A DNA stretch of 64,000 nucleotides. It comes from Gammaproteobacteria bacterium. Its GTDB lineage: Bacteria; Pseudomonadota; Gammaproteobacteria; Steroidobacterales; SZUA-146. The DNA lies in assembly GCA_045107075.1 (NCBI GenBank), contig JBGCFV010000018.1, positions 15,139 to 79,138 of the forward strand, read 5' to 3'. Numbering within the stretch: the stretch's first letter is position 1; each line of letters starts with the position of its first letter. Shown piece by piece: positions 3,743 to 63,904 of the stretch. The notes under the pieces were generated by a model. That model was not told where the DNA came from and ran no database searches. It saw only the letters and a program-made list of their open reading frames with translations. Position numbers and translations under genes: made by a program.

Positions 3743-3889
3743 GTGTCCACTCCAAAAATTAGTCGATTCATGCTACCGCGCAACGTCCATCTGGACACAC
3801 AACTTTTTGTCATGCGTTTGCATTTATGGCCTGTTTCTGGAATAACTAAACGTAGTCTTTTTGAAAGACATAGAGGATCGCGTAACGCT

Positions 3890-4495: not shown

Positions 4496-4581
4496 GGGAC
4501 TGCAAAGCGTTCAGCAATTGCGTTTCAGGGTGTAAGACTGTTGCGAAGCTGCGCACACTCAGTGCTAGTCACTAAAGCTTG

Positions 4582-37920: not shown

Positions 37921-38271
37921 GGATACTTGTTTTTGCGCCCCAAGCCGGACTCTCATATGTATAAAATGTCCTGATTACAGTGCAAATGAGTTGAAAAATT
38001 ACCGATCTGTAGCGATCTACGCCAATTTTTCTCTCCGTTTTTTATCGGCATAGACATGTGGTTGCTCGCCGTAATTTCTGCATTAGGTTAAATAATAATG
38101 GTGTGCTTAATAGTGGTTAGCGTCAATCAAAATCAGTAAATAGCACTAATTGTCGTTCAAAAGTGCATAAATTCAATCAAAATCGTTTAAACGGCACATC
38201 GAACATTCCCGCCCGATGAACTCACAATCAGACCGACTGTCCGATATAGTATCGCCATGACAGGAATACCC

Positions 38272-39039
38272 ATGATTAAAGCTCGCTCTATTATTGCTTT
38301 CGTAACCCAACTGCTCGCCGTAACGGTCCTGGCGACAGGCGCGACGGTGTCCGCTGCCGATTTCGAACCGCATAGTGCCCACTACGACGTCCGCATTAAA
38401 ATGTTCAAAGGATCCATGGTCACCGGGCTGCAGGCGGAGAAGGGTGTGTTCACCGGCACCTCCGAAATTAGAGCGCGTGGTCTGGCAAGACTGGCGGCAA
38501 AAGGCACCATTGAAAATCGATCACAGTTCAGACTCAGCAACGACGCTGTCCAACCACTTGCTTTTGAAGGCAACGACTCAATCTCCAAACGCAAGAAAAA
38601 AGCGACGCTCGATTTTGACTGGGAGGCACTTCGGGTAACCGGTCTGACTTCGCAAAAGAACAGCGGCGAGCTCGTCGAGAACCAGGTGAACGACCCGGTT
38701 GAAGACGGCACGCATGACGCCGTGTCGCTGCAGTACGCACTCATGCACGACCTTCAAAAAGACCAGCTGCGTGATCAGTATATTTTGATCGATGGCAGCG
38801 AGCGCAAGGTCATTAACATCACGCGCCGCGAGCCCGTCACGCTGCGTGTGCCCTTTGGTGAATTTGAAGCTGTGCCTGTCGAGCACCAGGTGGAAGGGTC
38901 CTCTCGCACGACCATATTCTGGTTAGCCGAAGAACTGAATTTCTTGCCCGTTAAAATCGAGCAGCGTCGCAAAGGCAAACGTTTAATGAAAGCGGAGCTT
39001 GGCGACTACCGGCCGACGGAAGAGCTTTCGTCACTCTAG
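38272..39039 (+). CDS. DUF3108-like exported protein
   Basis: AGGA 6 nt upstream of the ATG at 38272. Signal peptide ..ATVSA|AD. Beta-rich sequence ending ..LPVKIEQRRKGKRLMKAEL, as in DUF3108 proteins (from memory). Confidence 0.65.
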   Translation: MIKARSIIAFVTQLLAVTVLATGATVSAADFEPHSAHYDVRIKMFKGSMVTGLQAEKGVFTGTSEIRARGLARLAAKGTIENRSQFRLSNDAVQPLAFEGNDSISKRKKKATLDFDWEALRVTGLTSQKNSGELVENQVNDPVEDGTHDAVSLQYALMHDLQKDQLRDQYILIDGSERKVINITRREPVTLRVPFGEFEAVPVEHQVEGSSRTTIFWLAEELNFLPVKIEQRRKGKRLMKAELGDYRPTEELSSL

Positions 39040-42100: not shown

Positions 42101-43313
42101 TGCTGTCGCCGTTGTCCTGGTCGTCAATAACCTGAAGTCGAAACGTGTTGTCAGGACCCATTTCAAGAAGACTGCGAGGAATGCGAAACTCGGCTTTCCA
42201 GCGAAACTCGCCGTCAGAAAACCACTGCGCCGCTGCACCCGTGGGACCGGCACCTGAAAAACCACCCGAGCCGGTTCCAGCTTCACTGATGAAGGTGCCG
42301 CCTTCTTGTAAGCGCAGGCGAAAGTCATCCGGATTTGAGTATTCAGACGCGTCGTTGGTGGGGTCGACATAGACGCCGACAAACGAGCCCCCTTTCTGAA
42401 CATTTTCCATGCATACCCATAAATCGGTTTGAGTCGCACCGAGATAAAGCCACTCAATTTGGGAAGGTACGTCATCATTCCAGACCGGAATGCGTAGCGG
42501 GCCATTGAGGCCGGTGCACTGACCGTCAAGTGCCGGCTCCAAAATACGAGGTATTTGAAGTGGGCCCTCTGCGACTGGTGGTGCTATCTGACCAAAGAAA
42601 TTAGCAGCGCCATCCTGAGCGCCGTCAAAATTTCCAAAGGCTTCTCCGGGGCCACCCTCTAGAGGCCACACCGCGACGAGTCCATCGCGCGTGGATTCGA
42701 TTTTTTTGACAATGTCTCGTCGAATATCGTTCTGTAGCCGGGCGATTCGCCATAGGCGTACTTCGGCAATATTGCCCAGAAACGGGCAGGTGTTGCCGCA
42801 GGTGTTCGACGCCTCACCACCGATACCAATGCTGTCGAGATTAACGGGCAACGGCGCCGTGCTTGCGACAGACAGGTCAAGGACGCCGTTAACGTAAAAT
42901 TTGAGCGTACTGCCGTCATACGTAACAGCAATGTGGGTCCACTCACCCACTGCAACTGTTTTTGTTCCAGTAGTGCTGCCACCACCTCCCGCGTAGTAAC
43001 GAATTCGCCCGCTGCACAGTCCTAACCAGTAACCGGTTATGAAATTCTTACCGACGACTGTCTGACAGCTAGAGCTGGTGGTTTGTCTTACCCAGGCTTC
43101 AAGTGTAATTTCGCTACCCGGGTTTAACTCGGGTGCGTTCGGAATGACAATCCGGTCAGTGCCGCCATTGACTCGCAGCGTGTTTATCGTGGCCTGCGCG
43201 GTTGGCATTACAATGGCCATAGCCAGAAACAGTATTGCGACTGTTCGCGAGAATAAATTCTCCAGTTTGGAAAATAAGAAGGCGATAGTCGTTTCTGTGT
43301 TTTTCTGGTTCAC
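39138..43313 (-). CDS. Giant secreted multidomain metzincin: LamG-like, Ig-like, TSP3 Ca-binding repeats, HEXXHXXGXXH protease, MopE-like Cys/Asp repeats, FN3, dockerin-like C-terminus
   Basis: 1391 aa. Signal ..PTAQA|T. LamG-like segment (ITLEAWVRQ..WTHIAVTYDGSTLKFYVNG). HELGHVMGLHH at aa 833-843 (nt 40785-40817) with Met-turn SVMNY at aa 877-881. CGDGVDNNGDNEIDEDC and CDGLDNDGDLDIDEGC. DSDGDGVGDVCD and DTDGDNIGNACD. C-terminal DFNNDCIVNFVDY / DLNSDGVVNFLDI. GTG start. Confidence 0.85.
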   Translation of the reverse strand: MNQKNTETTIAFLFSKLENLFSRTVAILFLAMAIVMPTAQATINTLRVNGGTDRIVIPNAPELNPGSEITLEAWVRQTTSSSCQTVVGKNFITGYWLGLCSGRIRYYAGGGGSTTGTKTVAVGEWTHIAVTYDGSTLKFYVNGVLDLSVASTAPLPVNLDSIGIGGEASNTCGNTCPFLGNIAEVRLWRIARLQNDIRRDIVKKIESTRDGLVAVWPLEGGPGEAFGNFDGAQDGAANFFGQIAPPVAEGPLQIPRILEPALDGQCTGLNGPLRIPVWNDDVPSQIEWLYLGATQTDLWVCMENVQKGGSFVGVYVDPTNDASEYSNPDDFRLRLQEGGTFISEAGTGSGGFSGAGPTGAAAQWFSDGEFRWKAEFRIPRSLLEMGPDNTFRLQVIDDQDNGDSISEDWGWPVNYFWDWPARYQAVKINDSLIPEPDSQNPNVSIAHSPSNNPPAGPVMLRSSGFDQNRVESITLFLDRGPVLGRGPVLTCDFPAPGNVLELCNIELNLLPGQHHFYAVVTDVAGRTGVSRMDSFRVLEDGNNPELSIISDPVSPPAGGSATLIATATDPAGITFISVGQQVCNFPGTNTEESCSTTVQSSGQRVRSVIVSTTDSEGFNATVTRRVVFGNTGTDSDGDGLVDDIEDILCTSKNNPDTDGDSIIDKWEVLGASFPDGDYVDLPSMGANPCHKDVFLQYDYETGARVRDGIIENVVAAYQRNGVTLHVTENERPRPTSDAISTFDGASAAARVDDNGNYYFPPKHNWTHFYAYSRHSTGRSYADGRFFTLNMYRGDDCECPLSGIDPATCGLGTEAVDTSCSRESADSQTRLFMHELGHVMGLHHGGRRDVSTTPNIIEEYLYYPGRGDDVNLKPNYRSVMNYGYNGDVCITPNGNITSGLDYSGQLLGNLIENNLDERSTSGIVSALGFWNCPMSAPGSVPLIAYTCADPDENTALDVDLNARRSVVWTNGAQAQSRRMHGSSADDTGWNADTPNGIDWNCDGAISSSVSENINGVGVRNEFFLPSAQEICGDGVDNNGDNEIDEDCQWTVSGSGNPLRSENVDWLNLPRPGSCIVRYNQTANCYQQPQAYRNEINTSAAMDCRPSGRPVVDCPVQAGGRSTQVGGGISPDAIVEDGDFLELPPNTESCDGLDNDGDLDIDEGCRDTDFDDVSDAIDNCPFISNYSQTDSDGDGVGDVCDALVMGPLNVTVQGDIALDIDWDPVPGAVGYNVYKSTDGGEFAYQSSGDAYPSTASTFWLDLPPFPGQLLNWQYRVYPVDANGDEGTPSEGGFSTDDDADGVANSSDNCLLIANAGQQDTDGDNIGNACDPDFNNDCIVNFVDYAALAPQFLSTSSPLYDLNSDGVVNFLDISLFVDYFLMPPGPGGVGNVCD

Positions 43314-43473
43314 TTGTCGGAATTCCTGTGATGCTGATTGGCCACGTTTGCTGAGCTCGTCTGCGTCATGAATATCAGGCTGGCGTTAAATTGCAGACGC
43401 GCCCAGTTAGGAATACGTAAAGTTTCGGTCAAAGCGGCATCTGATTTTTGTTATTGCAAATCCGCTATCAGCT

Positions 43474-43613
43474 TCCGTCATTGCGAGCCCGCACGGCGGG
43501 CGAGGCAATCTCCGTCAGGGTGAGAAGAGATTAGATAATAACGTAGCGCTATAAGTCTCCGTCATTGCGAGGCCGCACAGCGGGCGCGGCAATCTCCGTC
43601 AGGGTGAGAAGAG
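43474..43613. repeat. REP-like family B, two direct tandem units (43474-43529 and 43558-43613)
   Basis: TCCGTCATTGCGAG(C/G)CCGCAC(G/A)GCGGGCG(A/C)GGCAATCTCCGTCAGGGTGAGAAGAG occurs twice with an 84-bp period. Confidence 0.85.
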
Positions 43614-43691
43614 GTAAATGAAGAAAATAATGAGCGGTTGCATTAAACAACTTCGGCAGGTCGCGCTTGCAAGAAAATTCTTGACCAAAAA

Positions 43692-45023
43692 CTAATCCGA
43701 TTCGTCTTCCTTCGGTTTACGAAGTTTATCAAGGATCGATATCGCTCCCTTCTTTAATCCTCCTCCCACGTCAGCCTCTTTATCAACCTGTATGTTGAAC
43801 GACGTCAAAATAAATTTAATCGACTCTCCAACGGCAGACCAAAGTCCCGCGGCAGCCAATGAAGACTTGGATTCAAACTGGGATTCATTTAAGACCAGAG
43901 AAAATTCGAGAGGGAAGTCGCCATTGTGTCCGTTAACGTAACGAGTCAGTGGTGCGGATGCGATTCGTTTGAACTTGCTTGTCCCCTGAGGTGCCTTGAC
44001 TTCAATGTTTGAAAACTTAAGGCGCCAGTCCATATCGATGGTAAGTGAGTTGTCGATCTCCCACTCATCGACAACAAACACCTCAACGGTGCCTTCGCTA
44101 AACCACGACAGTGGTCCACCTGCCATCGCTCCAAGACTCGCAACGGGTATGTTCGGAGCTCGCCATTCCGTTTTGCGGCCACTGGCAATCTTGGACGTGA
44201 CAATATCAAATGGAGAATCAGAAATTGATCCGCTAACGTTTGATCTGAACAATACGTCGAATAGCGCCATGCGTGATCTCAACGGTTGGCTATGAATGTG
44301 TTCAATGCTTATTGGTAGTGAGAACGGATTACCGTCAGGGTTTACGCCAGACACATTCAAATCTACATTCGTTACGTCGAGCCGGTCTATTACAAAAGCT
44401 CGTCGTGGCTTGTCGACGTCTTCACTACTGTCGGAATCGTTGGCAGCCTTTTGCGTCTTTTTAACCCAGCCATCAAGACCATCAAGCTCGGCACTCTCCA
44501 ACTGAGCGGTACCAAACAAAGAGGTAATCTTTAGGTCGAGGCTTATTTTGGCCAGGCGAAGGTCGAACGAAGACTCAGAATGGGAAGGTCGCTGAATAGT
44601 GCAATTGCGAAGGTCAATTTTCCCCGCAAATACGGAGCCGTCAATGTTCTCGCAGGACGTAGTAATTCCGCTTCGATCTTGCACTTTGTTGAAGACGTAT
44701 CGAACAGAGTCGTTGAAGAAGAATGTGTTCACAATGCCGATGCCGGCGAGAGTCAGCACGGCGAGGCCGGTCAGAACCATGGCGCCCAGTCGGGCAAATC
44801 GGAGTGTTTGGGGTTTGCCCGTACTACTTGCCGTGACACTATCTCGCGTTGTTTCAGTGCCTGTCTGTTGTTTCTCTTTTGTCTGGGTATTGATGTAGCT
44901 CGATCCGAGCAAGAATGACGCGATTAAACTGAACACCGAGCCAATCAGATTGGCGATCAGTAAAAAGAACGGTGCTAACACGGCGAAAACGATTTCACCA
45001 ATTATCAGAACGATCGCTTCCAT
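43692..45023 (-). CDS. Hypothetical membrane-anchored protein (no family recognised)
   Basis: Start MEAIVLIIGEIVF. Two N-terminal TM segments separated by a Thr/Gln-rich linker, then about 330 aa of beta-rich sequence. Visibly lower G+C than its neighbours. Confidence 0.6.
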   Translation of the reverse strand: MEAIVLIIGEIVFAVLAPFFLLIANLIGSVFSLIASFLLGSSYINTQTKEKQQTGTETTRDSVTASSTGKPQTLRFARLGAMVLTGLAVLTLAGIGIVNTFFFNDSVRYVFNKVQDRSGITTSCENIDGSVFAGKIDLRNCTIQRPSHSESSFDLRLAKISLDLKITSLFGTAQLESAELDGLDGWVKKTQKAANDSDSSEDVDKPRRAFVIDRLDVTNVDLNVSGVNPDGNPFSLPISIEHIHSQPLRSRMALFDVLFRSNVSGSISDSPFDIVTSKIASGRKTEWRAPNIPVASLGAMAGGPLSWFSEGTVEVFVVDEWEIDNSLTIDMDWRLKFSNIEVKAPQGTSKFKRIASAPLTRYVNGHNGDFPLEFSLVLNESQFESKSSLAAAGLWSAVGESIKFILTSFNIQVDKEADVGGGLKKGAISILDKLRKPKEDESD

Positions 45024-45087
45024 ATGGCTTCTTTTGTTACTACTCCCCAATTCGTATAGTCGTGTATGTTGGTCTTTTTGTAAAGAG

Positions 45088-45119
45088 TACTTGACAAGTA
45101 TTAGAGGCGCGATTATGAT
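45088..45119 (+). promoter_or_regulatory. Sigma70-type promoter (TTGACA-17-TATGAT) overlapped by the 13-bp palindrome TACTTGACAAGTA
   Basis: -35 TTGACA at 45091-45096, a 17-nt spacer, and -10 TATGAT at 45114-45119. The palindrome spans 45088-45100. The promoter lies 44 nt upstream of the 45163 ORF. Confidence 0.6.
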
Positions 45120-45162
45120 TTAGGTCAAGTTTACTTTACTTTAAGACAAAGAGGTTAGACAT

Positions 45163-45585
45163 ATGAGTGATTTAAAGTCCGACTCCTGCGATTGGCAATC
45201 GGACGGAGCAAGAAATACCGTTCGTCTTGGACTTTGGACCGCGGCCTGGTTACTGACCTTGGCCGTGGCGACCTCTGGTCCCAAGTTAATATGGGATTTC
45301 GCTACCCTTCCCTCGGTTCTCGCTGTTCTCGTTAACCTTGGCGTTGGAATCGGAATGATTCTGGCGAATAAGCAGCATCTTCAAGGGCTGGACGAATTGC
45401 AGCAGAAAATATTTCTCGACGCGGCGGCACTCTCACTGGGTGTTGGGTTAGTGTGCGGGTTCAGCTACGAGCTGCTGGAAGACATTAAACTTGTTTCGTT
45501 TGAACCGGAGATTTGGCATCTCATAGTTGTAATGTCTCTTGCCTTCCTCGCCGGAACGATTGCCGGACATAGAAAGTACCGATGA
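45163..45585 (+). CDS. Small four-helix membrane protein
   Basis: 140 aa with 4 predicted TM helices. ATGA overlap with the downstream XRE gene. Confidence 0.6.
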   Translation: MSDLKSDSCDWQSDGARNTVRLGLWTAAWLLTLAVATSGPKLIWDFATLPSVLAVLVNLGVGIGMILANKQHLQGLDELQQKIFLDAAALSLGVGLVCGFSYELLEDIKLVSFEPEIWHLIVVMSLAFLAGTIAGHRKYR

Positions 45586-45782
45586 AGAATCGCTTAAAAG
45601 TACTTCGTGCCGAAAGAGACTGGACTCAGGCGCAGCTTGCCAAAGAGCTCAGCGTTTCGCGTCAAACGGTGAACGCCATTGAGAAAGGAAAATTCGACCC
45701 CAGTTTACCTTTGGCATTCAAAGCGGCGCGTCTGTTTAAACTGTCGATAGAAGAAATTTTTCAGGATGAAGTTGAGTCCTGA
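45582..45782 (+). CDS. XRE-family (Cro/C1) HTH transcriptional regulator, 66 aa
   Basis: LKVLRAERDWTQAQLAKELSVSRQTVNAIEKGKFDPSLPLAFKAARLF is a classic short XRE HTH. Confidence 0.88.
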   Translation: MKNRLKVLRAERDWTQAQLAKELSVSRQTVNAIEKGKFDPSLPLAFKAARLFKLSIEEIFQDEVES

Positions 45783-45799: not shown

Positions 45800-47767
45800 C
45801 TAGTCTCGCTGCACCCATGTCGCAATTTCACGCAGAGTCGGGTAGTCAAACAAATCACTTACGTCAAGCTTGCCAGGAAAGCGTTCTTCAATGGCAAGAG
45901 ATATTTCTGTTAGCGTTAAAGAGCTCACGCCTGCTTCAAACAAATTGTCGTCCGGACCAATTTGCCCTTCGGTTACGAACTCCGACGCTATGCTCACAAG
46001 CTGACTACATACGTCACTGCCTGCTTCCGTCGCATTGCTTTCAGACGCCTCTGTAGAGGAAGCTGAGGTTACGCCTTCTGCTTCAAGCGTGTGATCAAAC
46101 TCACCTCGCATAAAGGTCTGGGCCAACTGGTGTCTTTGAATTTTTCCACTGGTGGTTTTTGGAATACGGGGCACCGGTACAACCAGGTCTGCCTCAAGTC
46201 CTGTTTTGGCGCTAATCTCGGCACGAAGTTCTTTGGCAAGTGACGCAAAGTCGGCAAGCTCTTTTCGAAACAAAACAAACACAGCAATCTGTTCGGTCGT
46301 ATGCTCGGGCAGCCTTACAGAAGCGACCGCAACTTTGCCAAGCTCGGCGCCGCTGGTGGAACTGACCGCGTTTTCTATATCGTGGGCATAGAAATTTTGG
46401 CCGTTGCTAATTAGCACGTCTTTAATACGACCCACAATCATCAGTTCGGGTTCGCCATTATTTGAAGAGACCAATGCACCAGAGTCGCCGGTGCGTAACC
46501 AGCCGTCTGCGGTGAACATGGCCTGTGTCGTCTGCTCGTCGCCGTAAATACGCTCAGTCACGCTGTCGCCTTTGAGTTGCAGATGCCCGATGATGCTGGC
46601 TGCTATTTCCGCATCGTTGTCATCAACTAGTCGCAGCTGTACGTCGCGTATGGGAGGACCAACGTGAACGAGGTCAATGCCTTCGTCGTCGGTAACCGCC
46701 TCAATTCGTGCTCCGATGGCTACCGATTCACGATGTATACGTGTGCTCGTGTAGAGTGTGCCAGGTTTTGAAAAGCTTACCCCTACCGTTGCCTCGGCTA
46801 AACCGTATACAGGTCTCATGGCTGTTGCAGGCAGACCGGTTGAGGCGAGCGTGGCATTAAACGTGTCGCATAACGCGCGAGAAATGGGTTCGGCACCGTT
46901 GAGCATTTGTCGGACGTGCGACAGGTCGATATCGTCGATTCCTTTTCGTTCCACCGCTTTCAGGTAGTGCTGGTAGCCGAAGTTGGGAGAACACAATATA
47001 GTGCTCTTGCGCTCGGCGGCCATAGACAGCCACAGCTTCGGTCGTCGCACGAACGCGCTTGTGTCCATAATGGCGTGGTGCATTCCGGCAGCCAGTACGC
47101 TGAGATGAAAGCCAATTAACCCCATGTCGTGAGTGAGCGGCATCCAGCTTAGCGCTTTGTCTTCTGGGCCCCATCCACCCGCTTCGATAATAGCGCGCAC
47201 GTTGGTCGTGACGTTCTTGTGTGTGAGGCAGACGCCCTTCGGGTCGCCGGTGGAGCCAGAGCTGTACTGAATAAACGCCAGGTCATCAGGTGTCGGCTTG
47301 GAAAGTTCTGTCGGTGCTGAATCGTTATCTTCTATTGAGGTGATCCAGCGAGCTGATTCTTTGAGCACGACGGGCATGCTGTCGTGGCTTTCGGCGAATT
47401 CGTGCAAACGAGTAGACAGATCAGCTGTGGTAAAGACGTAAGCGCTGCGCAGTTGCCCGACAATACGCAGGAGCTTGTTGCGGTGTTCATCGCTAATGCC
47501 AACCGCCACCGGAACAGGTACAAGTCCGCCCAGTACAGCCGCCCAGAAGGCAATGACAAAGTCTTCGTTAGACTGCGTATGAATGACGAGTTCGTCGCCG
47601 ACCTTCATGCCCCGTGCTTGCAAGAGCGCAAGTAATTCGCCTGCTCGTGACTTGAGTTGAGCCGGAGTTAGCGTAGTGGTCTGATCTTGTCCGTGAATAA
47701 ACTCAATCACGAGGTCAGAAGAGAGCTGACTGTCCAATAGATCATTCAGCGTCGAATGCAGCGGCAT
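45800..47767 (-). CDS. Fatty-acyl-AMP ligase (FAAL) fused to a C-terminal acyl carrier protein domain
   Basis: Adenylation core IQYSSGSTGDPKGV. FAAL-type MPLTHDMGLIG, YGLAEAT, GWLRTGD, and GRIKD. C-terminal carrier motif LFEAGVSSLTLTEISLAIE. Confidence 0.85.
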   Translation of the reverse strand: MPLHSTLNDLLDSQLSSDLVIEFIHGQDQTTTLTPAQLKSRAGELLALLQARGMKVGDELVIHTQSNEDFVIAFWAAVLGGLVPVPVAVGISDEHRNKLLRIVGQLRSAYVFTTADLSTRLHEFAESHDSMPVVLKESARWITSIEDNDSAPTELSKPTPDDLAFIQYSSGSTGDPKGVCLTHKNVTTNVRAIIEAGGWGPEDKALSWMPLTHDMGLIGFHLSVLAAGMHHAIMDTSAFVRRPKLWLSMAAERKSTILCSPNFGYQHYLKAVERKGIDDIDLSHVRQMLNGAEPISRALCDTFNATLASTGLPATAMRPVYGLAEATVGVSFSKPGTLYTSTRIHRESVAIGARIEAVTDDEGIDLVHVGPPIRDVQLRLVDDNDAEIAASIIGHLQLKGDSVTERIYGDEQTTQAMFTADGWLRTGDSGALVSSNNGEPELMIVGRIKDVLISNGQNFYAHDIENAVSSTSGAELGKVAVASVRLPEHTTEQIAVFVLFRKELADFASLAKELRAEISAKTGLEADLVVPVPRIPKTTSGKIQRHQLAQTFMRGEFDHTLEAEGVTSASSTEASESNATEAGSDVCSQLVSIASEFVTEGQIGPDDNLFEAGVSSLTLTEISLAIEERFPGKLDVSDLFDYPTLREIATWVQRD

Positions 47768-47768
47768 A

Positions 47769-49079
47769 TTATGAAGCCCTTGAAGTAATATTGAGTCGTA
47801 TCGCGTCGCTTGAACGCAGGTTTATACCGAGCTCCAGCTCGGGGTGAACATCCGTTTGCGGCTCTAACTTAAACTTTGGTAGAAGCGTCGCGAGCATCAA
47901 CTTCATTTCCATAAACGAAAAATACTCGCCGAGACAGCGGCGGGGTCCGAGCGAAAAGGGCAAGGATAAACCATCTTCAATGGATTTGTCTGGTGCGTAA
48001 CGCTGGGGTTCGAAGCTGTCAGGGTTGGGCCAGTGTGCCTCGGTGGTCTGCAGAACCAGCGGCGAGATATAAATATCGGTACCTTCATGAATGACAATAT
48101 CGTCAAGTTCGAAAGCAGTCACTGCACGTCGCGTAAACAGCCACACCGGCGGATACAGGCGCAAGGTTTCGTCAAGCACCTGTTGAGAGTATGTAAGCGA
48201 CATGAGTAATGCGGCATCTACTTCCTCGGCGGGTGAGTAGAGTGACGCGTATTCAGCTAGAAGTCGGCTTTCTACTTCAGGGTGGGTCGCAATGAGATAC
48301 CACGCCCAGTTCAGGGTGCCCGCTGACGTTTCGTAACCTGCAACTGTGAGTGTGATGATTTCGTCGAGCAACTCTTTGTCGGTAAAGCCAACGCCTTCTT
48401 TGTCCTTTTGACCCATTAGCATGGTGAGAAAGTCGTAGTCAGTTTCAGCCGGTTGCTCACGCCGTTGTTCGATAATGGCAAGAATGAGTGAGCGTAACTC
48501 CCGTACCTGCATCACAACTCGCAAGTCACGGGTTGAGTCTTCGCTTAGGAAAGCGAACGGATTAGTGCCGTTACTGACAATTGAGCGGTCGTAGTCTTCA
48601 CCAAAAATGGCGCGCAAGATTAACTCGAGTCCGGCGTCGTTCATTTCCCGGGTGACGTCTACGTCTGCATTTGACGCTGCAAGTTCTGTCCAGCGCTGCG
48701 CACGATTAAGGCAGCAGCTATGCATCATTTGCAGAAGCTTGTGCAGGTGCTTACGTGAGAACGCTGGTTGAATCATGCGTCTCGAACGTCGCCAGGTTGT
48801 GCCGTCGCTTACAATCAGTCCGTTGCCGAGCAGCATTTTGACGCGCTCAAAGCCCGGGCCTTTGTGAAATTTGTCGTGGTGTTTTACCAGCAGGCGGTGA
48901 ATTAGATCGGGTTTATTAATGAACAGTCCACGTCGTCCGCTGGCGCGGTTGATGGCCACCACGTCGCCGTACTCATGCTGCAGCGTCCGCAGCAAGTCGA
49001 GACTCTGCGGATCGATGCCCAGAGCGACCGGGTCGGACGGCCCGGGAACGGTGTTTTGATCAGAATCGGGAGTGCTCAT
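47769..49079 (-). CDS. Cytochrome P450 monooxygenase
   Basis: I-helix AGYETSAG, K-helix ETLRLYPP, heme loop FSLGPRRCLGEYF. The stop codon lies 1 nt from the FAAL-ACP start. Confidence 0.92.
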   Translation of the reverse strand: MSTPDSDQNTVPGPSDPVALGIDPQSLDLLRTLQHEYGDVVAINRASGRRGLFINKPDLIHRLLVKHHDKFHKGPGFERVKMLLGNGLIVSDGTTWRRSRRMIQPAFSRKHLHKLLQMMHSCCLNRAQRWTELAASNADVDVTREMNDAGLELILRAIFGEDYDRSIVSNGTNPFAFLSEDSTRDLRVVMQVRELRSLILAIIEQRREQPAETDYDFLTMLMGQKDKEGVGFTDKELLDEIITLTVAGYETSAGTLNWAWYLIATHPEVESRLLAEYASLYSPAEEVDAALLMSLTYSQQVLDETLRLYPPVWLFTRRAVTAFELDDIVIHEGTDIYISPLVLQTTEAHWPNPDSFEPQRYAPDKSIEDGLSLPFSLGPRRCLGEYFSFMEMKLMLATLLPKFKLEPQTDVHPELELGINLRSSDAIRLNITSRAS

Positions 49080-49183
49080 GAGCCAGTGCTGAATCTACGC
49101 GACGTTACGCAGGCTGCAGTTTACAATGACGCAGTCATGACCGATAGTGCGCCTAGGCTGGCAGCGGACTTGAGACCTACCTG

Positions 49184-49930
49184 ATGACCGACCAAAAACA
49201 ATCTGACGACATAGAGGCACGCCGGGGCAAATCGTCGCGACGTCGTATGACGTTCGGAAGACGAATGTCTTACGTTATTGGCATACCGCTGCTGCGCCTG
49301 ATATTGAGGCTATTGTGGATGAGCTACCGGGTTCAGCCTGTCTCGGTTCCACCGAGCGTGGCCAAGCTGATGGACAATAACACCCTGTTTGCGCCGTGCT
49401 ACTGGCATCAAAATCACATTTTATGCACCAGTACCATTAAACAGTGGATCAAGCGTGGTTTTAAAGCGGCCTTTCTAATCTCCGGGTCGGTCGACGGCGA
49501 AGTGCCGGCGAGTGTTGCTACTGCGTGGGGAGCGGAGGTCATTCGCGGCTCGTCAAATACTTCCGGTGCGCTTGTGCTACGCGACATGCACGCCACCATG
49601 AAACGAGGTGTGTCTATTGTCACCACGGCGGACGGTCCTTTAGGGCCGCAGCACCACTTCAAAGAGGGTGCTGTCCTCATGGCCCGAATTGGCGGAGCGC
49701 CGCTGGTTGCGCTGGGCTGTGCCGCCGACCGGGTCTGGGTGCTGGATCGTCGATGGGATAAATTCATTATTCCTAAACCGTTTGCGAAGGTGGCCATCTG
49801 TGTCTCCGAGCCGATTGTTGTGCCCAAATCAGCTCCGGCTGACCAGCTTGAAAGCTACCGTCAGGCCATGGAAGACGAGATTAATGCCCAGTCTGCCCGA
49901 GCTCGAGAGCTTTTAGGTCCCGGGGGCTAG
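49184..49930 (+). CDS. DUF374-like protein (lysophospholipid-acyltransferase superfamily)
   Basis: 248 aa. N-terminal basic/TM segment, then YWHQNHIL..LISGSVDGE..WGAEVIRGSSN..G, resembling DUF374 (from memory). Divergent from the P450 operon across a 104-bp spacer. Confidence 0.6.
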   Translation: MTDQKQSDDIEARRGKSSRRRMTFGRRMSYVIGIPLLRLILRLLWMSYRVQPVSVPPSVAKLMDNNTLFAPCYWHQNHILCTSTIKQWIKRGFKAAFLISGSVDGEVPASVATAWGAEVIRGSSNTSGALVLRDMHATMKRGVSIVTTADGPLGPQHHFKEGAVLMARIGGAPLVALGCAADRVWVLDRRWDKFIIPKPFAKVAICVSEPIVVPKSAPADQLESYRQAMEDEINAQSARARELLGPGG

Positions 49931-50161: not shown

Positions 50162-50656
50162 TTGGCAGCTGACCAGGAATTTCAACAGATACTGAACGAT
50201 CACGCGCCGATGATTCAGCGTATCGCCCAGACCTATGAGCGCCGGCCGGCACTTGTACAAGAGATTGTGCAGGAAGCTGCATTTGCGCTCTGGCGGGCGT
50301 TGCCCAAATTTCGCGGTGATAGCTCAATGCGTACGTTTGTTGGTCGCATAGCTCACAATGTCTGCGTGAGCCACGTCCGCAAAGAGTCTAAAAGCCGCTA
50401 CGATGAACTTCCCGAAGCGCTGGCTGATCCAAAGCCTTTGCTTGACGTCAAGGCCGAGCAGGACTCGCGCCGGGAATGGCTGCTTGCAGCCGTTCGAGAA
50501 CTACCTCTGAGTATTCGTCCGGTTGTAACGCTTCACCTTGAAGGGTTTAGCAATCTCGAAATTGCTGACGCACTGGCGCTTACCGCAAACAATGTTGGCG
50601 TCCGTCTAAATCGGGGACGGTCACAGCTTAAAGCCCGTATTGAGGCATCCAAATGA
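50162..50656 (+). CDS. ECF-type RNA polymerase sigma factor
   Basis: Region 2 (IQRIAQTYE..EIVQEAAFALWRAL) and region 4.2 (GFSNLEIADALALTANNVGVRLNRGRSQLK). TTG start. Confidence 0.88.
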   Translation: MAADQEFQQILNDHAPMIQRIAQTYERRPALVQEIVQEAAFALWRALPKFRGDSSMRTFVGRIAHNVCVSHVRKESKSRYDELPEALADPKPLLDVKAEQDSRREWLLAAVRELPLSIRPVVTLHLEGFSNLEIADALALTANNVGVRLNRGRSQLKARIEASK

Positions 50657-51267
50657 ACGACTTACCAGATCACCCAAATAACGACAACGTTGACGATATG
50701 AACCTGCAAGATCTTTGGCAGGAAACACCGCCCGTAAACGTTGATGACCTGGTTAAGAGCGTCAAGAGCGCTCACCGAAAAATGCGATTTTATGTTTACT
50801 ACGAACTCGCATCATCTGTATTTGGCATATTCCTGTTCGTGTGGATTTTTAAAGAAAATCTCTTTGAAGATCAACTGTGGATTCCGATTCTACTAGGCGC
50901 GCTGGTTTTCTTGATTCAGGCTTGGGCGTTTACGTGGCGGAGAGGTTTGTGGAATGCTTTTGCCAGGTCACCCGAAGAACTGTTTCAACTAAAAAGACGT
51001 CACTTATTCCTTGATATAAAGGTGGCGCGTTCGATTTATGGCGGCATCGTAGGCGGTGGCGCGGTAGGTGCCCTCGCAGCGTACTTCTCCAGCGGTGACC
51101 GTCATTTCGAGCTCTCGGAGTTCGCGCGCGGTTCGATTTTAACGCTCGTCGCTTGTTCAGCCGTCTACTTTTTTATCTGGGGTGTTCGAAAAGAAATTAA
51201 GGCGCGTAAGCAGCTAAAAGAATTGGAAAAACAAATTAAGGAGTACGAAAGCTTCGAAAGTTTGTAA
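50653..51267 (+). CDS. Polytopic membrane protein coupled to the ECF sigma factor (candidate non-canonical anti-sigma)
   Basis: ATGA overlap with the sigma gene. 204 aa with about 4 TM helices. No HxxxCxxC zinc anti-sigma motif. C-terminal coiled-coil KQLKELEKQIKEYE. Confidence 0.6.
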   Translation: MNDLPDHPNNDNVDDMNLQDLWQETPPVNVDDLVKSVKSAHRKMRFYVYYELASSVFGIFLFVWIFKENLFEDQLWIPILLGALVFLIQAWAFTWRRGLWNAFARSPEELFQLKRRHLFLDIKVARSIYGGIVGGGAVGALAAYFSSGDRHFELSEFARGSILTLVACSAVYFFIWGVRKEIKARKQLKELEKQIKEYESFESL

Positions 51268-51322
51268 TGTTTTAGAAACAACGACGACTAGGTAATTACA
51301 CATTCACAAAAGCGTAGTCGTT

Positions 51323-52747
51323 ATGAAAACTAAAATAGCCGCAGTGCTAATACTGCTAATGGTAATCGGATCACTTGGGGTTCCAGCTAAATCGTTAAGT
51401 CATTTGGCAACTGATGTTGCTTTAACTTCATGTCACGTAAAGAGCATCGAAGCCAAAGCACGGTGTGCGAAAATTTCGGTACCTGAAGACTGGTCGACTC
51501 CCGACGGCAAACACATCTCACTTTACGTTGCAGTAGTTCCGCCAAGTGGCGGCCAACCGAGCAAGGCACCGCTGTATGTTCTCGCGGGTGGCCCGGGGCA
51601 GGCTGCATCCACCCTTGGTCCAAACGTCGATATGGGTCTTGCAAAAGCAAGGCGCGGGCGTGAGGTGATTCTGGTCGACCAGCGTGGCACAGGTATGAGT
51701 TCACCTTTCGATTGTCCGTTTAGCCTGGACCCTGATATTAAAGGTGGTGAGTATGCACGCTCGTGCCTGAACTCAACGAATAATCAACCTGAGTTTTACA
51801 ACTCCGACGCGTTTATGCTCGACCTGGACGCGGTGCGTAAAGCCTTGGGTCACGAGCAAATCAACTTGCTGGGTGGCTCTTACGGAACACGTGCCGCGCT
51901 GTTGTACTTACGCAAATTTCCGCAGAACGTACGCTCAATTGTGCTGGACGCGGTCGCGGCACCTGAAACGGCTTTCTTCGAGCAGTTTCATGCAAGCGCG
52001 GCTCGCGCCTTGAACAAACTGTTTGCTGACTGCGCGGCCGACACCGACTGTAAAGAGGCCTATCCCACTTTGCGTGAGCAGTTTAGTCAGGTAGTGAGTG
52101 ATTTAAATCAAGCACCTGTTATTCGACACCGACCACAAACGCTGGAAGTCACTCCAGACATTTTTCTCAACGCGCTTCGCAACGCGCTCTACTCTCCGCT
52201 TACTACGGCTCAGATACCGCTCGTTATTGACGCTGCAGCAAATGGAAACTTTGATCCGTGGAGTGCGATAGCGGGTGGTATGAATTCAACGTACGTCGAC
52301 ATGTCGATTGGAACGATGCTGTCAGTGCTGTGCGGTGAAGAGCTGCATACAACTTCGCCTCAAGCCATATCGCACGCCGGGCGCGGCGGCGCATTTGAGG
52401 GGGTTTCCATGGATTTCTGGTTCGACGCCTGTGCGGTATGGCCGCATCAGGTTGCGGATGAAGGCTATCGCGATCCGGTTGAATCTGACATTCCTGTGCT
52501 GCTGTTATCTGGCGCGCAGGATCCTGTTACGCCGCCGGTGTTTGGCGACGTCGCCGCGTCCAGGCTAAGTAACTCGGTTCACGTTGTTGCCCCGTACGGC
52601 GGCCACACCATTGGTGCGTACTCGTGCGTACCGCGTCTGATTGCAGACTTTCTCGATAATCTCGATCCCGCAGCGATAGACCCAGGCTGTTTGGATGACG
52701 TTACCCGCGAACCGTTCATCGTTAGTCACTACGGCCCGAAGCCCTAG
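51323..52747 (+). CDS. Secreted alpha/beta hydrolase, S33 tripeptidyl/prolyl-aminopeptidase-like
   Basis: Signal peptide, nucleophile elbow GGSYGT, and C-terminal PVLLLSGAQDPVTP..GGH (TAP-like). Confidence 0.8.
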   Translation: MKTKIAAVLILLMVIGSLGVPAKSLSHLATDVALTSCHVKSIEAKARCAKISVPEDWSTPDGKHISLYVAVVPPSGGQPSKAPLYVLAGGPGQAASTLGPNVDMGLAKARRGREVILVDQRGTGMSSPFDCPFSLDPDIKGGEYARSCLNSTNNQPEFYNSDAFMLDLDAVRKALGHEQINLLGGSYGTRAALLYLRKFPQNVRSIVLDAVAAPETAFFEQFHASAARALNKLFADCAADTDCKEAYPTLREQFSQVVSDLNQAPVIRHRPQTLEVTPDIFLNALRNALYSPLTTAQIPLVIDAAANGNFDPWSAIAGGMNSTYVDMSIGTMLSVLCGEELHTTSPQAISHAGRGGAFEGVSMDFWFDACAVWPHQVADEGYRDPVESDIPVLLLSGAQDPVTPPVFGDVAASRLSNSVHVVAPYGGHTIGAYSCVPRLIADFLDNLDPAAIDPGCLDDVTREPFIVSHYGPKP

Positions 52748-52798
52748 TAATAAGCCAGCTACAAAAAGCTAAAAGAAATCTGGATAAGGAACTCAGCA

Positions 52799-53524
52799 AT
52801 GATTGAACTACAAAAAATGCATAAATCCTACGGCGACGTTCACGCGGTAAATGGACTCAGCCTGACCGCGAACGACGGCGAAATCACAACGCTTTTGGGT
52901 GCTAACGGCTCGGGCAAGTCGACCACGCTGCGCATGCTTGCCGGAATCATTAAACCCGACGGCGGGCAGGCTCTGGTTGATTCGATTAATGTTGCTGCAC
53001 ATCCGATGAAGGCCCGCAGACGACTCGGCATGTTTGGCGATCAGTTTGGTTTGTACCCAAGAATTACCGCTTTCGAGCACCTTGAGTATGTTGGCGGTTT
53101 TCACGGTTTAAGTGGCAAAGCCTTAAAGAACTCGGTTGCCGAAATTAGCGAGCTGTTGCAAATGACCGATTTGCTCGACCGTCGCACGGAAGGGTTTTCT
53201 CAAGGCCAGCGAATGAAAGTGGCGTTAGCCAGAACGCTGGTGACCAAACCCCAGAATCTGGTTCTCGATGAGCCTACTCGCGGTCTGGATATCATGAGCA
53301 TGCGTTTGTTGCGGTCGGTGTTGAAAGACCTGCGCGATTCAGGCCGGTGCATTTTGTTGTCCAGTCACGTCATGGCCGACGTTGAAGAACTGTCCGACAA
53401 GATCGTGTTTCTCGCAGCAGGGCAGGTTGTGCACACCGGATCGGCGTCAGAACTGATGGCCATTAGTGGTACTGCATCGCTGGAAGAAGCGTTTATTTCG
53501 ATGATTAACACACACGCGGCTTAG
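52799..53524 (+). CDS. ABC transporter ATP-binding protein (NatA-like)
   Basis: Walker A GANGSGKST, signature FSQGQRMK, Walker B LVLDEPT. Confidence 0.9.
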   Translation: MIELQKMHKSYGDVHAVNGLSLTANDGEITTLLGANGSGKSTTLRMLAGIIKPDGGQALVDSINVAAHPMKARRRLGMFGDQFGLYPRITAFEHLEYVGGFHGLSGKALKNSVAEISELLQMTDLLDRRTEGFSQGQRMKVALARTLVTKPQNLVLDEPTRGLDIMSMRLLRSVLKDLRDSGRCILLSSHVMADVEELSDKIVFLAAGQVVHTGSASELMAISGTASLEEAFISMINTHAA

Positions 53525-53533
53525 GGGCTTGTC

Positions 53534-54685
53534 ATGAAATTACTGTTTAATGTTATCCGCAAAGAGTGGCGTGACGCGACACGTGATCGTCGCAGTATTA
53601 CATCTTCTTTGTTATTCGCCGTTTTGGGTCCGTTACTGATTTTTTTCTTGCTTGACTCGTTGGCAGACGATGTCGATAGCACCGACGCACTTCCCGTAGC
53701 GGTTGTGGGTGCCCAGTACGCACCCACAATGATTGCAAAGTTGGCAGAGCAGGGTATTGCCTGGACCAGGTACGAGAGCCTTGAGGCTGCGCGCAGCGCA
53801 GCGCCTGAAGTGCTTGTCACTATTCCTGACGACTTCAGTGATCGCTATCTTGACGGTGTTCCGGTCGATGTAGCCATTACGGCGAATTTCAAGAATTCGA
53901 AAGATCAGGCGGCAGCGCTGCGCGTCGAGAAAATCATGTCAGGCTACGGCAACAAGATTAGCTACTCACGCCTTATTGCAGCCGGGGTTGCACCGGATTC
54001 CGTTCGAGCCATCAAGGTGACGACGTATGACTCGTCACTGGCGGGTGGGCGCGCGTCACGCATTAGTGATTCGATGATCTATATGTTTTTGTTGGCGGCG
54101 TTTGTTAGCGGTGCACTCATGGCGGCTGACTCGATAGCCGGTGAGCGGGAGAGACATTCGTTGGAGTCTCTGTTGTCGCAACCTGTGAGTCCTCTGACCC
54201 TTACCGCCGGAAAATGGATTGCCGCTGCAATGATTAGCGGCATAGTCTCGACGGCCACGGTGGCGATCGGTGGCCTGGTTTTGGCCGTCGCGCCGCTTGA
54301 AGTGTTGGGCCTGCGCATTGTTGTGAGCCCGTTGAGTATCTTAATGGGCGTTCTGGTGCTGTTGCCGTTAGCGCTAATGGCTGTTGCGATGCAAATGTTC
54401 TTCGCGGCCCGCGCTCGCACGTACCGCGAAGCCGGAATATACGCACAGTTCACTTCGTTTCTTCCCATTGTGGTGGCGGGAACCGTGATGATAGGCAATG
54501 TTGACTACGGCACGCTGGGCCAACTGCTTCCAATTACCAGTCAGACTATGGCTTTGAAAGACGTCCTGCTGGAGGGGCGGCCAGCGTTTCGGGCGTTTTT
54601 TGGCGGATCACTCACGACCCTGTTGGCTGCCGCTGCGTTTGTGTGGTTTACCTCAAAACGACTCAGTGACGAGCGCAGTCTGTAG
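53534..54685 (+). CDS. ABC-2 permease with large extracytoplasmic loop (NatB-like)
   Basis: 383 aa. TM1, an exoplasmic loop of about 150 aa, then 5 TM helices. Confidence 0.8.
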   Translation: MKLLFNVIRKEWRDATRDRRSITSSLLFAVLGPLLIFFLLDSLADDVDSTDALPVAVVGAQYAPTMIAKLAEQGIAWTRYESLEAARSAAPEVLVTIPDDFSDRYLDGVPVDVAITANFKNSKDQAAALRVEKIMSGYGNKISYSRLIAAGVAPDSVRAIKVTTYDSSLAGGRASRISDSMIYMFLLAAFVSGALMAADSIAGERERHSLESLLSQPVSPLTLTAGKWIAAAMISGIVSTATVAIGGLVLAVAPLEVLGLRIVVSPLSILMGVLVLLPLALMAVAMQMFFAARARTYREAGIYAQFTSFLPIVVAGTVMIGNVDYGTLGQLLPITSQTMALKDVLLEGRPAFRAFFGGSLTTLLAAAAFVWFTSKRLSDERSL

Positions 54686-54775
54686 GATAAACTTTTGGAA
54701 GTTTTACAAAGTTGGGCTTGCGAAGGCTCGCAGGAGTAGACATCATCGTCTTTGGTTATTTAAGAGAACAGCGCT

Positions 54776-55291
54776 GTGAAAAAACCTGCGAGCCTGCTGA
54801 AACAAATAGGCGTTTTGGCCCTGCTGGTGCTTGTGTATCTCGGCAACGAGTATCTGGGCAACGGCACCAATGACCGTCCTTCCGGAACTACGCAGAATCA
54901 GACGGAACAGTCGTCACGAGGCTCGTCGCAAAGCAGTGGCGCTACGCGGTCGAGCAACGACGACACAAATCTGATTATTGAGAGTTTTGAGGCGCAACGC
55001 TCAGACGTCTGGGTGCAGGCCAGTGGCACTGTAGACCGCGTGCTACCCGACGACAACGAAGGCTCTCGGCATCAGCGCTTTTTGGTGGCGCTTCGTACCG
55101 GTCATACGATATTGATTGCACACAATATTGATCTGGCTCCAAAGGTGCCTCTGGAGCGGGGAGATACGGTAGAGTTTCGCGGCGAGTACGAGTGGAACGA
55201 CCGCGGAGGCGTCGTGCACTGGACCCACCACGACCCGAGAGGGCGTAAGAAAGGCGGCTGGATTAGCCATCGCAAGCAAACATACGAGTAG
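54776..55291 (+). CDS. DUF3465-like exported protein
   Basis: Signal anchor, low-complexity Ser/Gln linker, then RHQRFLVALRTGHTILIAHNIDLAP..GDTVEFRGEYEWNDRGGVVHWTHHDP. GTG start. Confidence 0.7.
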   Translation: MKKPASLLKQIGVLALLVLVYLGNEYLGNGTNDRPSGTTQNQTEQSSRGSSQSSGATRSSNDDTNLIIESFEAQRSDVWVQASGTVDRVLPDDNEGSRHQRFLVALRTGHTILIAHNIDLAPKVPLERGDTVEFRGEYEWNDRGGVVHWTHHDPRGRKKGGWISHRKQTYE

Positions 55292-63032: not shown

Positions 63033-63087
63033 GTATCCCGACTTGTCGGGACCACAATCTCAGTACTTAACGTGAGTGACAATTAAA

Positions 63088-63573
63088 ATGCGAGCCATGT
63101 ACCCGGGTACTTTTGACCCCATTACCAACGGACACCAGGACCTGGTGCGCCGGGCCAGCGGTATTTTCGACGAAGTGGTTGTGGGGATTGCCTCCAATCC
63201 AAAAAAACGACCCTTGTTTACGCTAGAAGAACGCGTCGAGTTGGCAAGACTTGTGTTGGCCGATATACCCAACTGTTCCGTTATTGGTTACTCGGGTCTC
63301 ACGGTGCAGTACGCGGTCGACAACAATCTGGGGGTGATGGTGCGAGGGCTTCGCGCGGTGTCTGACTTCGAGGCTGAATTTCAAATGGCCACCATGACGC
63401 GAAAAATTGAGCCTAAAGTTGAAACCGTATTTCTGACTCCGGACGAGCAGTTCACCTACATCTCGTCCAGCATGGTCAAAGAGGTCGCCGCTTTTGGTGG
63501 CGACGTAGCCCAGTTCGTGCACCCGCGTGTCGACGAGGAGCTGCAGATTCGGTTCCGGTCGAAGACTGATTAA
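63088..63573 (+). CDS. coaD: Phosphopantetheine adenylyltransferase
   Basis: YPGTFDPITNGHQDLVRRA, and ISSSMVKEV near the C-terminus. ATG at 63088 chosen by analogy with other CoaD N-termini. Confidence 0.93.
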   Translation: MRAMYPGTFDPITNGHQDLVRRASGIFDEVVVGIASNPKKRPLFTLEERVELARLVLADIPNCSVIGYSGLTVQYAVDNNLGVMVRGLRAVSDFEAEFQMATMTRKIEPKVETVFLTPDEQFTYISSSMVKEVAAFGGDVAQFVHPRVDEELQIRFRSKTD

Positions 63574-63631
63574 AGCTGGTCGAAAGCCGGTGGCGAAAAC
63601 CACAGAGCACCAAGAAAGCGGGTCAACGTAA

Positions 63632-63904
<273 letters not shown>

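Follow-up and report, generated by a model that had tools for sequence, protein, structure and literature searches.

Acylation of lipid A sets the rigidity and permeability of the outer membrane and its recognition by innate immunity. To our knowledge, the known routes to the secondary chains of lipid A all draw on AcpP or on the rhizobial carrier AcpXL, and the only known oxidation of these chains is that by the Fe/2-oxoglutarate enzyme LpxO. A non-orthologous substitute for the LpxM-type late acyltransferases is LpxJ. The DUF374 family, with members in Helicobacter, Campylobacter, Wolinella and Rickettsia, has been renamed LpxJ, and the enzymes place a secondary acyl chain onto the 3' primary chain of lipid A with acyl carrier protein (ACP) thioesters as donors (PMC6148475, PMC6286764). 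Hydroxylated secondary chains are tolerated, as LpxN of V. cholerae transfers 3-hydroxylauroyl (PMC6286764), and in rhizobia the AcpXL/LpxXL system delivers 27-hydroxy-C28 to lipid A (PMC5613085). Here we describe a stretch of 64 kb from contig JBGCFV010000018.1 of a gammaproteobacterial assembly (GCA_045107075.1), in the following called the window, in which the gene of a DUF374/LpxJ-family acyltransferase stands back to back with the genes of a cytochrome P450 and of a fatty acyl-AMP ligase fused to a carrier domain (FAAL-ACP). Judged from the sequences, the three genes could constitute one module, in which an oxidised acyl chain is made on a dedicated carrier and installed on lipid A, and we give this reading a probability of about 0.5. 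A description of such a module was not found in the literature searched, in line with the original prediction made from the DNA letters, which knew of no characterised system with these three parts.

The FAAL-ACP didomain protein of 655 aa is encoded at 45800..47767 and the P450 of 436 aa at 47769..49079, both on the minus strand, and the acyltransferase of 248 aa, a membrane protein with an N-terminal helix, at 49184..49930 on the plus strand. Independent ORF (open reading frame) calls agree exactly with the coordinates and strands first proposed for the three genes, and the AMP-binding, PP-binding, p450 and DUF374 (PF04028) domains are all found by Pfam above the gathering scores. The stop codon of the P450 gene and the start codon of the FAAL-ACP gene are, as predicted, spaced by one nucleotide, the junction reading TAA-T-ATG, and the gap of 104 bp (49080..49183) between the start codons of the divergent P450 and DUF374 genes was also right. 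Relatives of the P450 number thousands in metagenomes, and a scan with one genome per species found them in 194 species genomes, of which the best 80 were Woeseiaceae or unclassified gammaproteobacterial metagenome-assembled genomes (MAGs). Most of the first 83 loci that were compared come from this one family.

The acyltransferase matches PF04028 with an E-value of 3.8e-16 and 58.9 bits, against a cut-off of 26.8. Its catalytic motifs are CYWHQ (49397-49411), SVDGE (49487-49501), TADGPLGP (49625-49648) and RRWDKFIIPKPF (49748-49783), all on the plus strand. The residues W60, H61, D86, D132, W172 and D173 are essential in LpxJ of R. typhi (PMC6148475), and all of them have counterparts in the protein of the window, namely W74-H75, D104, D150 and W191-D192. 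W74, H75, D150, W191 and D192 are invariant across Woeseiaceae, the outgroups and Planctomycetota, and D104 is replaced in one outgroup, L085. In an AlphaFold2 model (pLDDT 80) residues 24-47 form a helix, and a Foldseek search of the model against the PDB gave PatA as all of the top 11 matches (TM-scores 0.45-0.51) followed by GPAT1, in agreement with the relationship to PatA that was proposed by the LpxJ authors, while the corresponding sequence search against the PDB gave nothing useful. The assignment to DUF374 is thus confirmed, and more precisely the protein belongs to the lipid A late acyltransferases of the LpxJ family, with intact catalytic residues. As an amendment to the original prediction, DUF374 is not an uncharacterised domain, since the family has the known function of LpxJ.

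In the FAAL-ACP the adenylation domain covers aa 28-406 (46550..47686, minus strand) as delimited by Pfam (AMP-binding, 2.4e-53), motifs and alignment, and a low-complexity linker joins it to the C-terminal carrier domain at aa 599-652 (45812..45973, minus strand), which matches PF00550 with 3e-14 and 53.4 bits against a cut-off of 20.8. All three motifs that had been quoted for the protein, IQYSSGSTGDPKG, MPLTHDMGLIG and GVSSL, occur in it. The protein is conserved in at least 71 orthologues, and among 71 of them the core motifs of the ANL superfamily, that is the A3 P-loop motif YSSGSTGDPKG (47234-47266, minus strand), YGLAEAT (A5), GWLRTGD (A8) and PKTTSGKIQR (A10), show a conservation of at least 90-98%. 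The FAAL hallmark MPLTHDMGLIG (47111-47143, minus strand) matches WLPFYHDMGLVG of the E. coli FAAL, and a segment of about 40 residues (approximately aa 333-372, 46652-46771, minus strand) corresponds, by alignment only, to the FAAL-specific insertion of the E. coli FAAL 3PBK, and McyG has a gap at this place. The amino-acid adenylation model TIGR01733 gives 121 bits, below its cut-off of 317. By its motifs the adenylating enzyme is FAAL-like, and not an acyl-CoA synthetase or an amino-acid adenylation domain, and a fatty acid appears to be the likeliest class of substrate. The predicted phosphopantetheine site, Ser616, lies in DNLFEAGVSSL (codon 45920-45922, minus strand), a motif conserved as DNLFE.G.SS[LMI] in Woeseiaceae, the outgroups and Planctomycetota, so the serine of GVSSL is kept as G.SS[LMI] in all aligned lineages.

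FAAL-ACP units usually prime lines of polyketide synthases (PKS) or nonribosomal peptide synthetases (NRPS), and the FAAL-ACP and the P450 might then be a loading cassette that provides a hydroxy-acyl starter for a PKS/NRPS encoded elsewhere. The PDB neighbours of the protein are FAAL-type adenylation domains, and the top ones include McyG and NRPS-embedded, non-fatty-acid domains, which would suit such a role. Against it stand the absence of megasynthase genes with ketosynthase (KS), acyltransferase (AT), condensation (C) or thioesterase (TE) domains from the 64-kb window and, in about 170 related loci, from the 6-10 kb around the module. What recurs beside it are acyltransferases of the LpxJ and LpxL types and a phosphopantetheinyl transferase (PPTase), and the setting is core chromosome, near ftsYEX, rpoH, priA and hemH; photolyase, two-component systems and coaD are the other genes of this kind in the window. 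A role as a starter cassette is therefore considered very improbable. No PKS, NRPS, thioesterase or reductase gene is found across the entire window, and in this the original prediction, which listed no C domain, thioesterase or reductase, was correct. Its statement that there is no KS is true of the window and fails for most Woeseiaceae, where a canonical FabH is translationally coupled to the FAAL-ACP.

The P450 matches PF00067 with 2.9e-75 and has the heme loop FSLGPRRCLG (47928-47957), the ExxR motif as ETLR (48159-48170) and the acid-alcohol motif of the I-helix as AGYETS (48324-48344), all on the minus strand and all invariant among the aligned P450 orthologues. With its Cys loop, ExxR and acid-alcohol pair the protein is, by sequence motif, of the O2-activating monooxygenase type. 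Its nearest solved relatives are CYP97, CYP170, CYP46, CYP4B1, CYP3A and CYP102, which are hydroxylases of hydrophobic substrates. The nearest solved structure is PDB 7WZL, a code for which a literature search gave no paper, and an exact-sequence look-up of the P450 of the window gave no match. A P450 that acts on a carrier-bound chain has a precedent, as BioI (CYP107H1) acts on acyl-ACP to give pimeloyl-ACP. The P450 might, like BioI, cleave or over-oxidise the tethered chain to a dicarboxylate for pimelate and biotin or for a bolaform lipid, and its coupling to a carrier-bearing protein suits a tethered substrate. This explanation is given little credence: the P450 is unrelated to the CYP107 type and closest to hydroxylases of the CYP97/CYP170/CYP46/CYP4/CYP3A/CYP102 type, neither the window nor the related loci examined contain biotin genes, and the conserved partner is an acyltransferase and not a BioF-type enzyme. 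As had been predicted, there is no redox partner of the P450 nearby, and the sole ferredoxin-like ORF is of the YfhL type and located 14 kb off. At 63076-63904 coaD (phosphopantetheine adenylyltransferase) is followed by this 89-aa YfhL-like 2x[4Fe-4S] ferredoxin (63635-63904), which might possibly serve as a non-specific electron donor for the P450.

In Woeseiaceae the canonical order is DUF3108←DUF374← on one side of the intergenic region and →P450→FAAL-ACP→FabH on the other. The DUF374 gene is located divergently upstream of P450→FAAL-ACP in every locus with a long enough contig, the gap between the P450 and FAAL genes is -4 to +15 nt in 82 of 82 related loci, and among 35 loci of at least 20 kb no unit other than the block of these five genes keeps its position, the flanks being variable. 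The window belongs to a sister sublineage together with L001, L004 and L005 (72-79% P450 identity), in which FabH is absent and the DUF3108 gene is found at the FAAL-ACP end instead of beside DUF374. DUF3108 (38257..39039, plus strand, PF11306) is an exported beta-barrel protein with a signal peptide; its gene directly follows FAAL-ACP in L005, is two genes away in L001 and 6.7 kb away in the window, and has thus remained linked to the module despite rearrangement. The AlphaFold2 model of DUF3108 (pLDDT 89) gave weak fold matches (TM-scores 0.3-0.56) to RseB/MucB, LolA/LolB, EPDR1 and lipid binders of the LprG type, which fit a role in the envelope and prove nothing. The search did not return 3FZX, the YmcC-fold entry cited in the literature, and a sequence search of DUF3108 against the PDB gave nothing useful. 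In the Woeseiaceae MAG locus L048 the DUF3108 orthologue (3829-4554) has an in-frame stop and is either a pseudogene or an assembly error.

The FabH gene (β-ketoacyl-ACP synthase III, KASIII) directly follows FAAL-ACP in L002 (11304-12272), L003 (11272-12240) and about 60 other Woeseiaceae loci, and in 23 loci the two are joined by an ATGA overlap. The residues Cys112/His244/Asn274 and Phe87 are conserved, and the proteins match FabH of E. coli and Neisseria with E-values of about 1e-103 to 1e-114. The KASIII was considered as a specialised condensing enzyme of the module and rejected, being a canonical short-primer FabH that is missing from the window and its sublineage. The locus was first described as a minimal cassette, which does not hold strictly, as DUF3108 in Woeseiaceae and a PPTase elsewhere accompany the three genes.

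Between DUF374 and P450 there is a non-coding core of about 45 nt, located at approximately 49100-49150 in the window, which is conserved family-wide where the protein identity is about 55%, and also in 4 loci of the sublineage. Of 76 family loci, 72 have an exact copy of GTCAATGTA within it and 65 an exact copy of AGTTTGCAG. In the sense of the P450 the core reads GAGTTTGCAGTATCG-N10-GGTCAATGTAATATTGCGCCTG, and it contains the partial palindrome CAATGTAATATTG. A promoter match in the DUF374 direction consists of the -35 region TTTACA and the -10 region GATAGT with a spacer of 17 nt (49120-49148), and the -10 match in the P450 direction sits over this -35 region. The core can be read as back-to-back overlapping divergent promoters, or as an operator, and its conservation speaks for a long-standing joint control of the two transcription units.

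Since synteny inside one family is weak evidence, the search was extended to distant relatives. An exhaustive search of representatives at 50% identity gave a graded series of P450s of the same length with 36-46% identity, and the outgroups that keep the trio have P450s of 40-46% and DUF374 proteins of 32-37% identity in unrelated flanks. L084 carries the same four genes. The divergent trio is found in L085 (GC 61%) amid genes for a sulfatase, a Ser/Thr kinase and a PF07638 sigma factor, and in L086 amid methylamine-metabolism genes, with DUF374 proteins that are 37 and 32% identical to that of the window respectively. In L093, a Planctomycetota MAG with a GC content of 71.5%, the order is P450→FAAL-ACP→DUF374 in a single collinear operon, which has an ATGA overlap, and in L147 the trio is likewise collinear. 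Convergent to the trio in L093 (14178-16737) are genes for a 221-aa protein without a Pfam match, a membrane glycosyltransferase of the GT87 family and an S-adenosylmethionine-dependent methyltransferase, which may be further genes for the tailoring of envelope lipids.

A metagenome scan with the outgroup alignment, in which the presence of FAAL was scored from the coordinates of high-scoring segment pairs, gave 80 loci. The trio is present in 43 of them (GC 33-70%), and the trio-bearing P450s constitute 13 clusters at 60% identity. Counting only metagenome loci with room on both sides, 26 have both FAAL-ACP and DUF374, 6 have FAAL-ACP without DUF374, none has DUF374 without FAAL-ACP and 6 have neither (Fisher's exact p=3e-4), so DUF374 adjoins P450 relatives without FAAL in 0 of 6 loci. 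Together with the gap of -4 to +15 nt in the 82 loci, this places the arrangement of the trio far beyond chance. The co-occurrence on which the original prediction depended is consequently borne out, the trio being kept across distant lineages in two gene orders, divergent and collinear. With domain identities and catalytic residues intact, the genes are under purifying selection and tightly linked across phyla. In one sub-group of the trio, represented by L101 (2342-5026) and 12 other metagenome loci, a large PAS-GGDEF-EAL signalling protein is encoded just past DUF374, which probably reflects synteny of the lineage and not function.

Two further gene families recur at the module outside the window. 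An Sfp-type PPTase gene, not found in the window, is located inside the module in at least 12 loci. It usually opens an operon PPTase→DUF374, and such operons stand opposite P450→FAAL-ACP in at least 9 loci. The recurrence of the PPTase argues for a fused carrier that is functional in its holo form and has an activating enzyme of its own. A gene for an LpxL/HtrB-family late acyltransferase is convergent and located right after FAAL-ACP in 10 loci, in one of them without DUF374; it matches PF03279 with 5.7e-36, and its top NCBIfam models are lipid A lauroyl acyltransferases. No PF03279 gene was found in the window or in the related loci L001-L083. The presence of a second late-acyltransferase family at the module gives independent support from context for lipid A as the acceptor, and what was a guess in the original prediction has to that extent gained ground.

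The same module could also act on another acceptor, a lysophospholipid, aminolipid or glycolipid, with the DUF374 protein as a general O-acyltransferase of the lysophospholipid acyltransferase (LPLAT) superfamily. DUF374 belongs to this superfamily, its nearest solved fold is that of PatA, a phosphatidylinositol-mannoside acyltransferase, and few DUF374 proteins have ever been assayed. In E. coli Aas an AMP-binding acyl-ACP synthetase is coupled with an LPLAT domain for the reacylation of lysophospholipids, and in Planctomycetota the trio is adjoined by the GT87 glycosyltransferase and the methyltransferase. The conservation of all the residues critical in LpxJ speaks against a different acceptor, and so do the LpxL/HtrB-family genes that flank the module in 10 loci. 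A lineage labelled Anaerolineae bears on both sides of the question, since it carries P450-FAAL, and its DUF374 is truncated as expected if the role of the enzyme needs lipopolysaccharide (LPS). In two loci with a P450 named 'Anaerolineae bacterium' by NCBI (L088, 1-196, and L089, 1-338) an N-terminal DUF374 fragment stands beside a PPTase gene upstream of P450-FAAL, and comprises the membrane helix and PCYWHQQ, followed by a stop. The acyltransferase may be decaying here, in a lineage that reportedly has no LPS, or the contigs may be mis-binned. On balance another acceptor is a possible explanation, which we regard as unlikely without dismissing it lightly.

Several observations weigh against a module devoted to lipid A. 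No ferredoxin, flavodoxin or reductase gene is found within 14 kb of the P450, and a conserved redox partner was not found in the related loci, although the assignment as a P450 does not depend on one. The top NCBIfam models of the FAAL-ACP are FAAL models (3e-101) yet score under their curated cut-offs, the best being NF006624 'fatty acyl-AMP ligase' with 339.5 bits against 600, indicating that the protein lies outside the named FAAL subfamilies, and as some of its closest solved structures act on other acids, a fatty acid is a probable and not an established class of substrate. There are 6 FAAL-positive loci without DUF374, there is no DUF374 within 3.8 kb upstream in L090, and the Anaerolineae-labelled lineage, with only a truncated remnant of DUF374, indicates that the pair P450-FAAL can exist without LpxJ. 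Furthermore, the presence of a canonical FabH in the operon implies that housekeeping lipid genes can be syntenic with the module without being specific to the pathway, and in principle the DUF374 protein could be an LpxJ with a housekeeping role and AcpP as its carrier. Two FAAL-positive loci without DUF374, L131 (8068-9159) and L143 (9414-11276), have a second AMP-binding gene downstream and a PPTase gene upstream, which suggests that they are variant modules with a different off-loading.

A further explanation is that the trio is not one pathway, and that a housekeeping LpxJ using AcpP-bound chains stands beside a separate P450-FAAL-ACP unit, for example for fatty-acid salvage or detoxification, the adjacency coming from clustering of lipid genes and shared regulation. 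It is favoured by the housekeeping-type FabH in the same operon in most Woeseiaceae, by the several P450-FAAL-ACP loci without an adjacent DUF374, and by the vertical synteny to be expected where most of the first 83 loci are from one family. The adjacency outlasts changes of flanks, gene order and phylum at a DUF374 identity of 32-37%, though, and DUF374 is never beside the FAAL-less relatives of the P450. The PPTase-DUF374 operons that face P450-FAAL-ACP in at least 9 loci, and the overlapping divergent promoter core conserved family-wide, also speak against two unconnected units, and we hold this explanation to be improbable, more so than a different acceptor.

If the three genes make up one pathway to lipid A, family features suggest that the FAAL domain would first adenylate a free long-chain fatty acid and load it as a thioester on the phosphopantetheine of Ser616. 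The translationally coupled P450 would then hydroxylate the chain, most likely while it is tethered, by analogy with the pairs of adenylation-thiolation (A-T) proteins and P450s and with BioI on acyl-ACP; that the hydroxylation is terminal or sub-terminal is a guess. Finally, as the function of LpxJ and the genomic context suggest, the LpxJ-type enzyme would take the acyl-carrier as its donor and esterify a primary 3-hydroxyacyl chain of a lipid A precursor, that is perform a secondary acylation. In Woeseiaceae the exported LolA/RseB-like DUF3108 protein may, speculatively, handle the modified glycolipid in the periplasm. Every part is of a known family and the logic has precedents, whereas we found none for the combination, in which a private carrier fused to a FAAL is joined by a P450 and a transferase of the LpxJ type, and optionally by a PPTase, LpxL or DUF3108. 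The stronger claim that this would be the first P450 for LPS assembly, with a private FAAL-fused carrier and LpxJ-type (or LpxL-type) transfer of a hydroxy-acyl chain to lipid A, is put forward tentatively, and we think it has somewhat less than an even chance of being right.

The surroundings of the module in the window are in part specific to its lineage. Between FAAL-ACP and DUF3108 there is a lineage-specific insert of 6.7 kb (39138-45782), which encodes a secreted-looking protein of 1391 aa with Laminin_G_3, thrombospondin type-3 repeats and dockerin-like and MopE-like motifs, a protein of 452 aa with an unexpected Pfam match to MDM31/MDM32 (2.5e-10), and a 140-aa ORF that overlaps a 66-aa gene of the XRE helix-turn-helix type (45582-45782). 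Downstream of DUF374 the region 50162-55291 is syntenic with L001 (1929-7053) and contains genes for an extracytoplasmic function (ECF) sigma factor with an overlapping putative anti-sigma factor (204 aa, without a Pfam match), a 474-aa alpha/beta hydrolase with a TAP-like C-terminus, an ABC-2 transporter pair and DUF3465. These genes are confined to the sublineage of the window and lie outside the conserved module.

If the proposed route is true, the Raetz pathway would gain a new branch, dependent on a P450, fed by salvage and working with a private carrier. Nearly all Woeseiaceae have the module, and it is found again in Planctomycetota and in numerous lineages without assignment from soil, peat and marine habitats (GC 33-70%). 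Woeseiales constitute 1-22% of the 16S sequences in marine sediments (PMC7082342), and the module would then define the outer-membrane chemistry of this abundant marine-sediment group. C26-C32 (omega-1)-hydroxy fatty acids have been reported from some planctomycetes, where they are 'only residually bound' (PMC3327967), and no biosynthetic genes assigned to them were found in the literature searched. With a hydroxyl in a terminal or sub-terminal position the module could, as a speculation, be a widespread new source of the non-extractable (omega-1)-hydroxy fatty acids of the LPS type known from planctomycetes, and it provides a concrete genetic handle on the question of these acids in lipid geochemistry. 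The proteins involved are all small and either soluble or with a single helix, so that the hypothesis can be tested directly in the E. coli lpxM-mutant reporter strains that have already served for LpxJ.

The acyltransferase of the window resembles the LpxJ enzymes in PF04028, size, the N-terminal membrane helix and the critical residues (W-H, D, DGP and W-D), whereas the characterised ones use AcpP-bound C12-C18 chains and none has been reported beside a FAAL-ACP or a P450. With the rhizobial AcpXL/LpxXL system the likeness is in logic only, a dedicated carrier being clustered with a late acyltransferase and a hydroxylated secondary chain going to lipid A. AcpXL is a stand-alone carrier fed by dedicated FabF/FabZ elongation enzymes, no P450 introduces the hydroxyl, and LpxXL belongs to PF03279, the LpxL family, and not to DUF374. 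In the module the carrier is instead part of a FAAL protein expected to take a free fatty acid, and a P450 would do the oxidation. No genes for a stand-alone AcpXL, for FabF1XL/FabF2XL/FabZXL or for LpxXL are present in the window. E. coli Aas also activates free fatty acids onto a carrier with ATP and transfers them to a membrane lipid by an enzyme of the LPLAT superfamily, but it is a single fused polypeptide that works with AcpP, has a PlsC-type HX4D domain, involves no oxidation and uses a lysophospholipid as acceptor. The closest parallels to the front half of the module are NovH/NovI and NikP1/NikQ, in which a stand-alone A-T didomain is co-expressed with a neighbouring P450 that oxidises the tethered substrate. 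These have amino-acid A domains, antibiotic products and class I bacterial P450s, whereas the module has an A domain of the FAAL type, a P450 nearer to CYP97/CYP4/CYP102-like enzymes and an apparent off-loading by a membrane acyltransferase.

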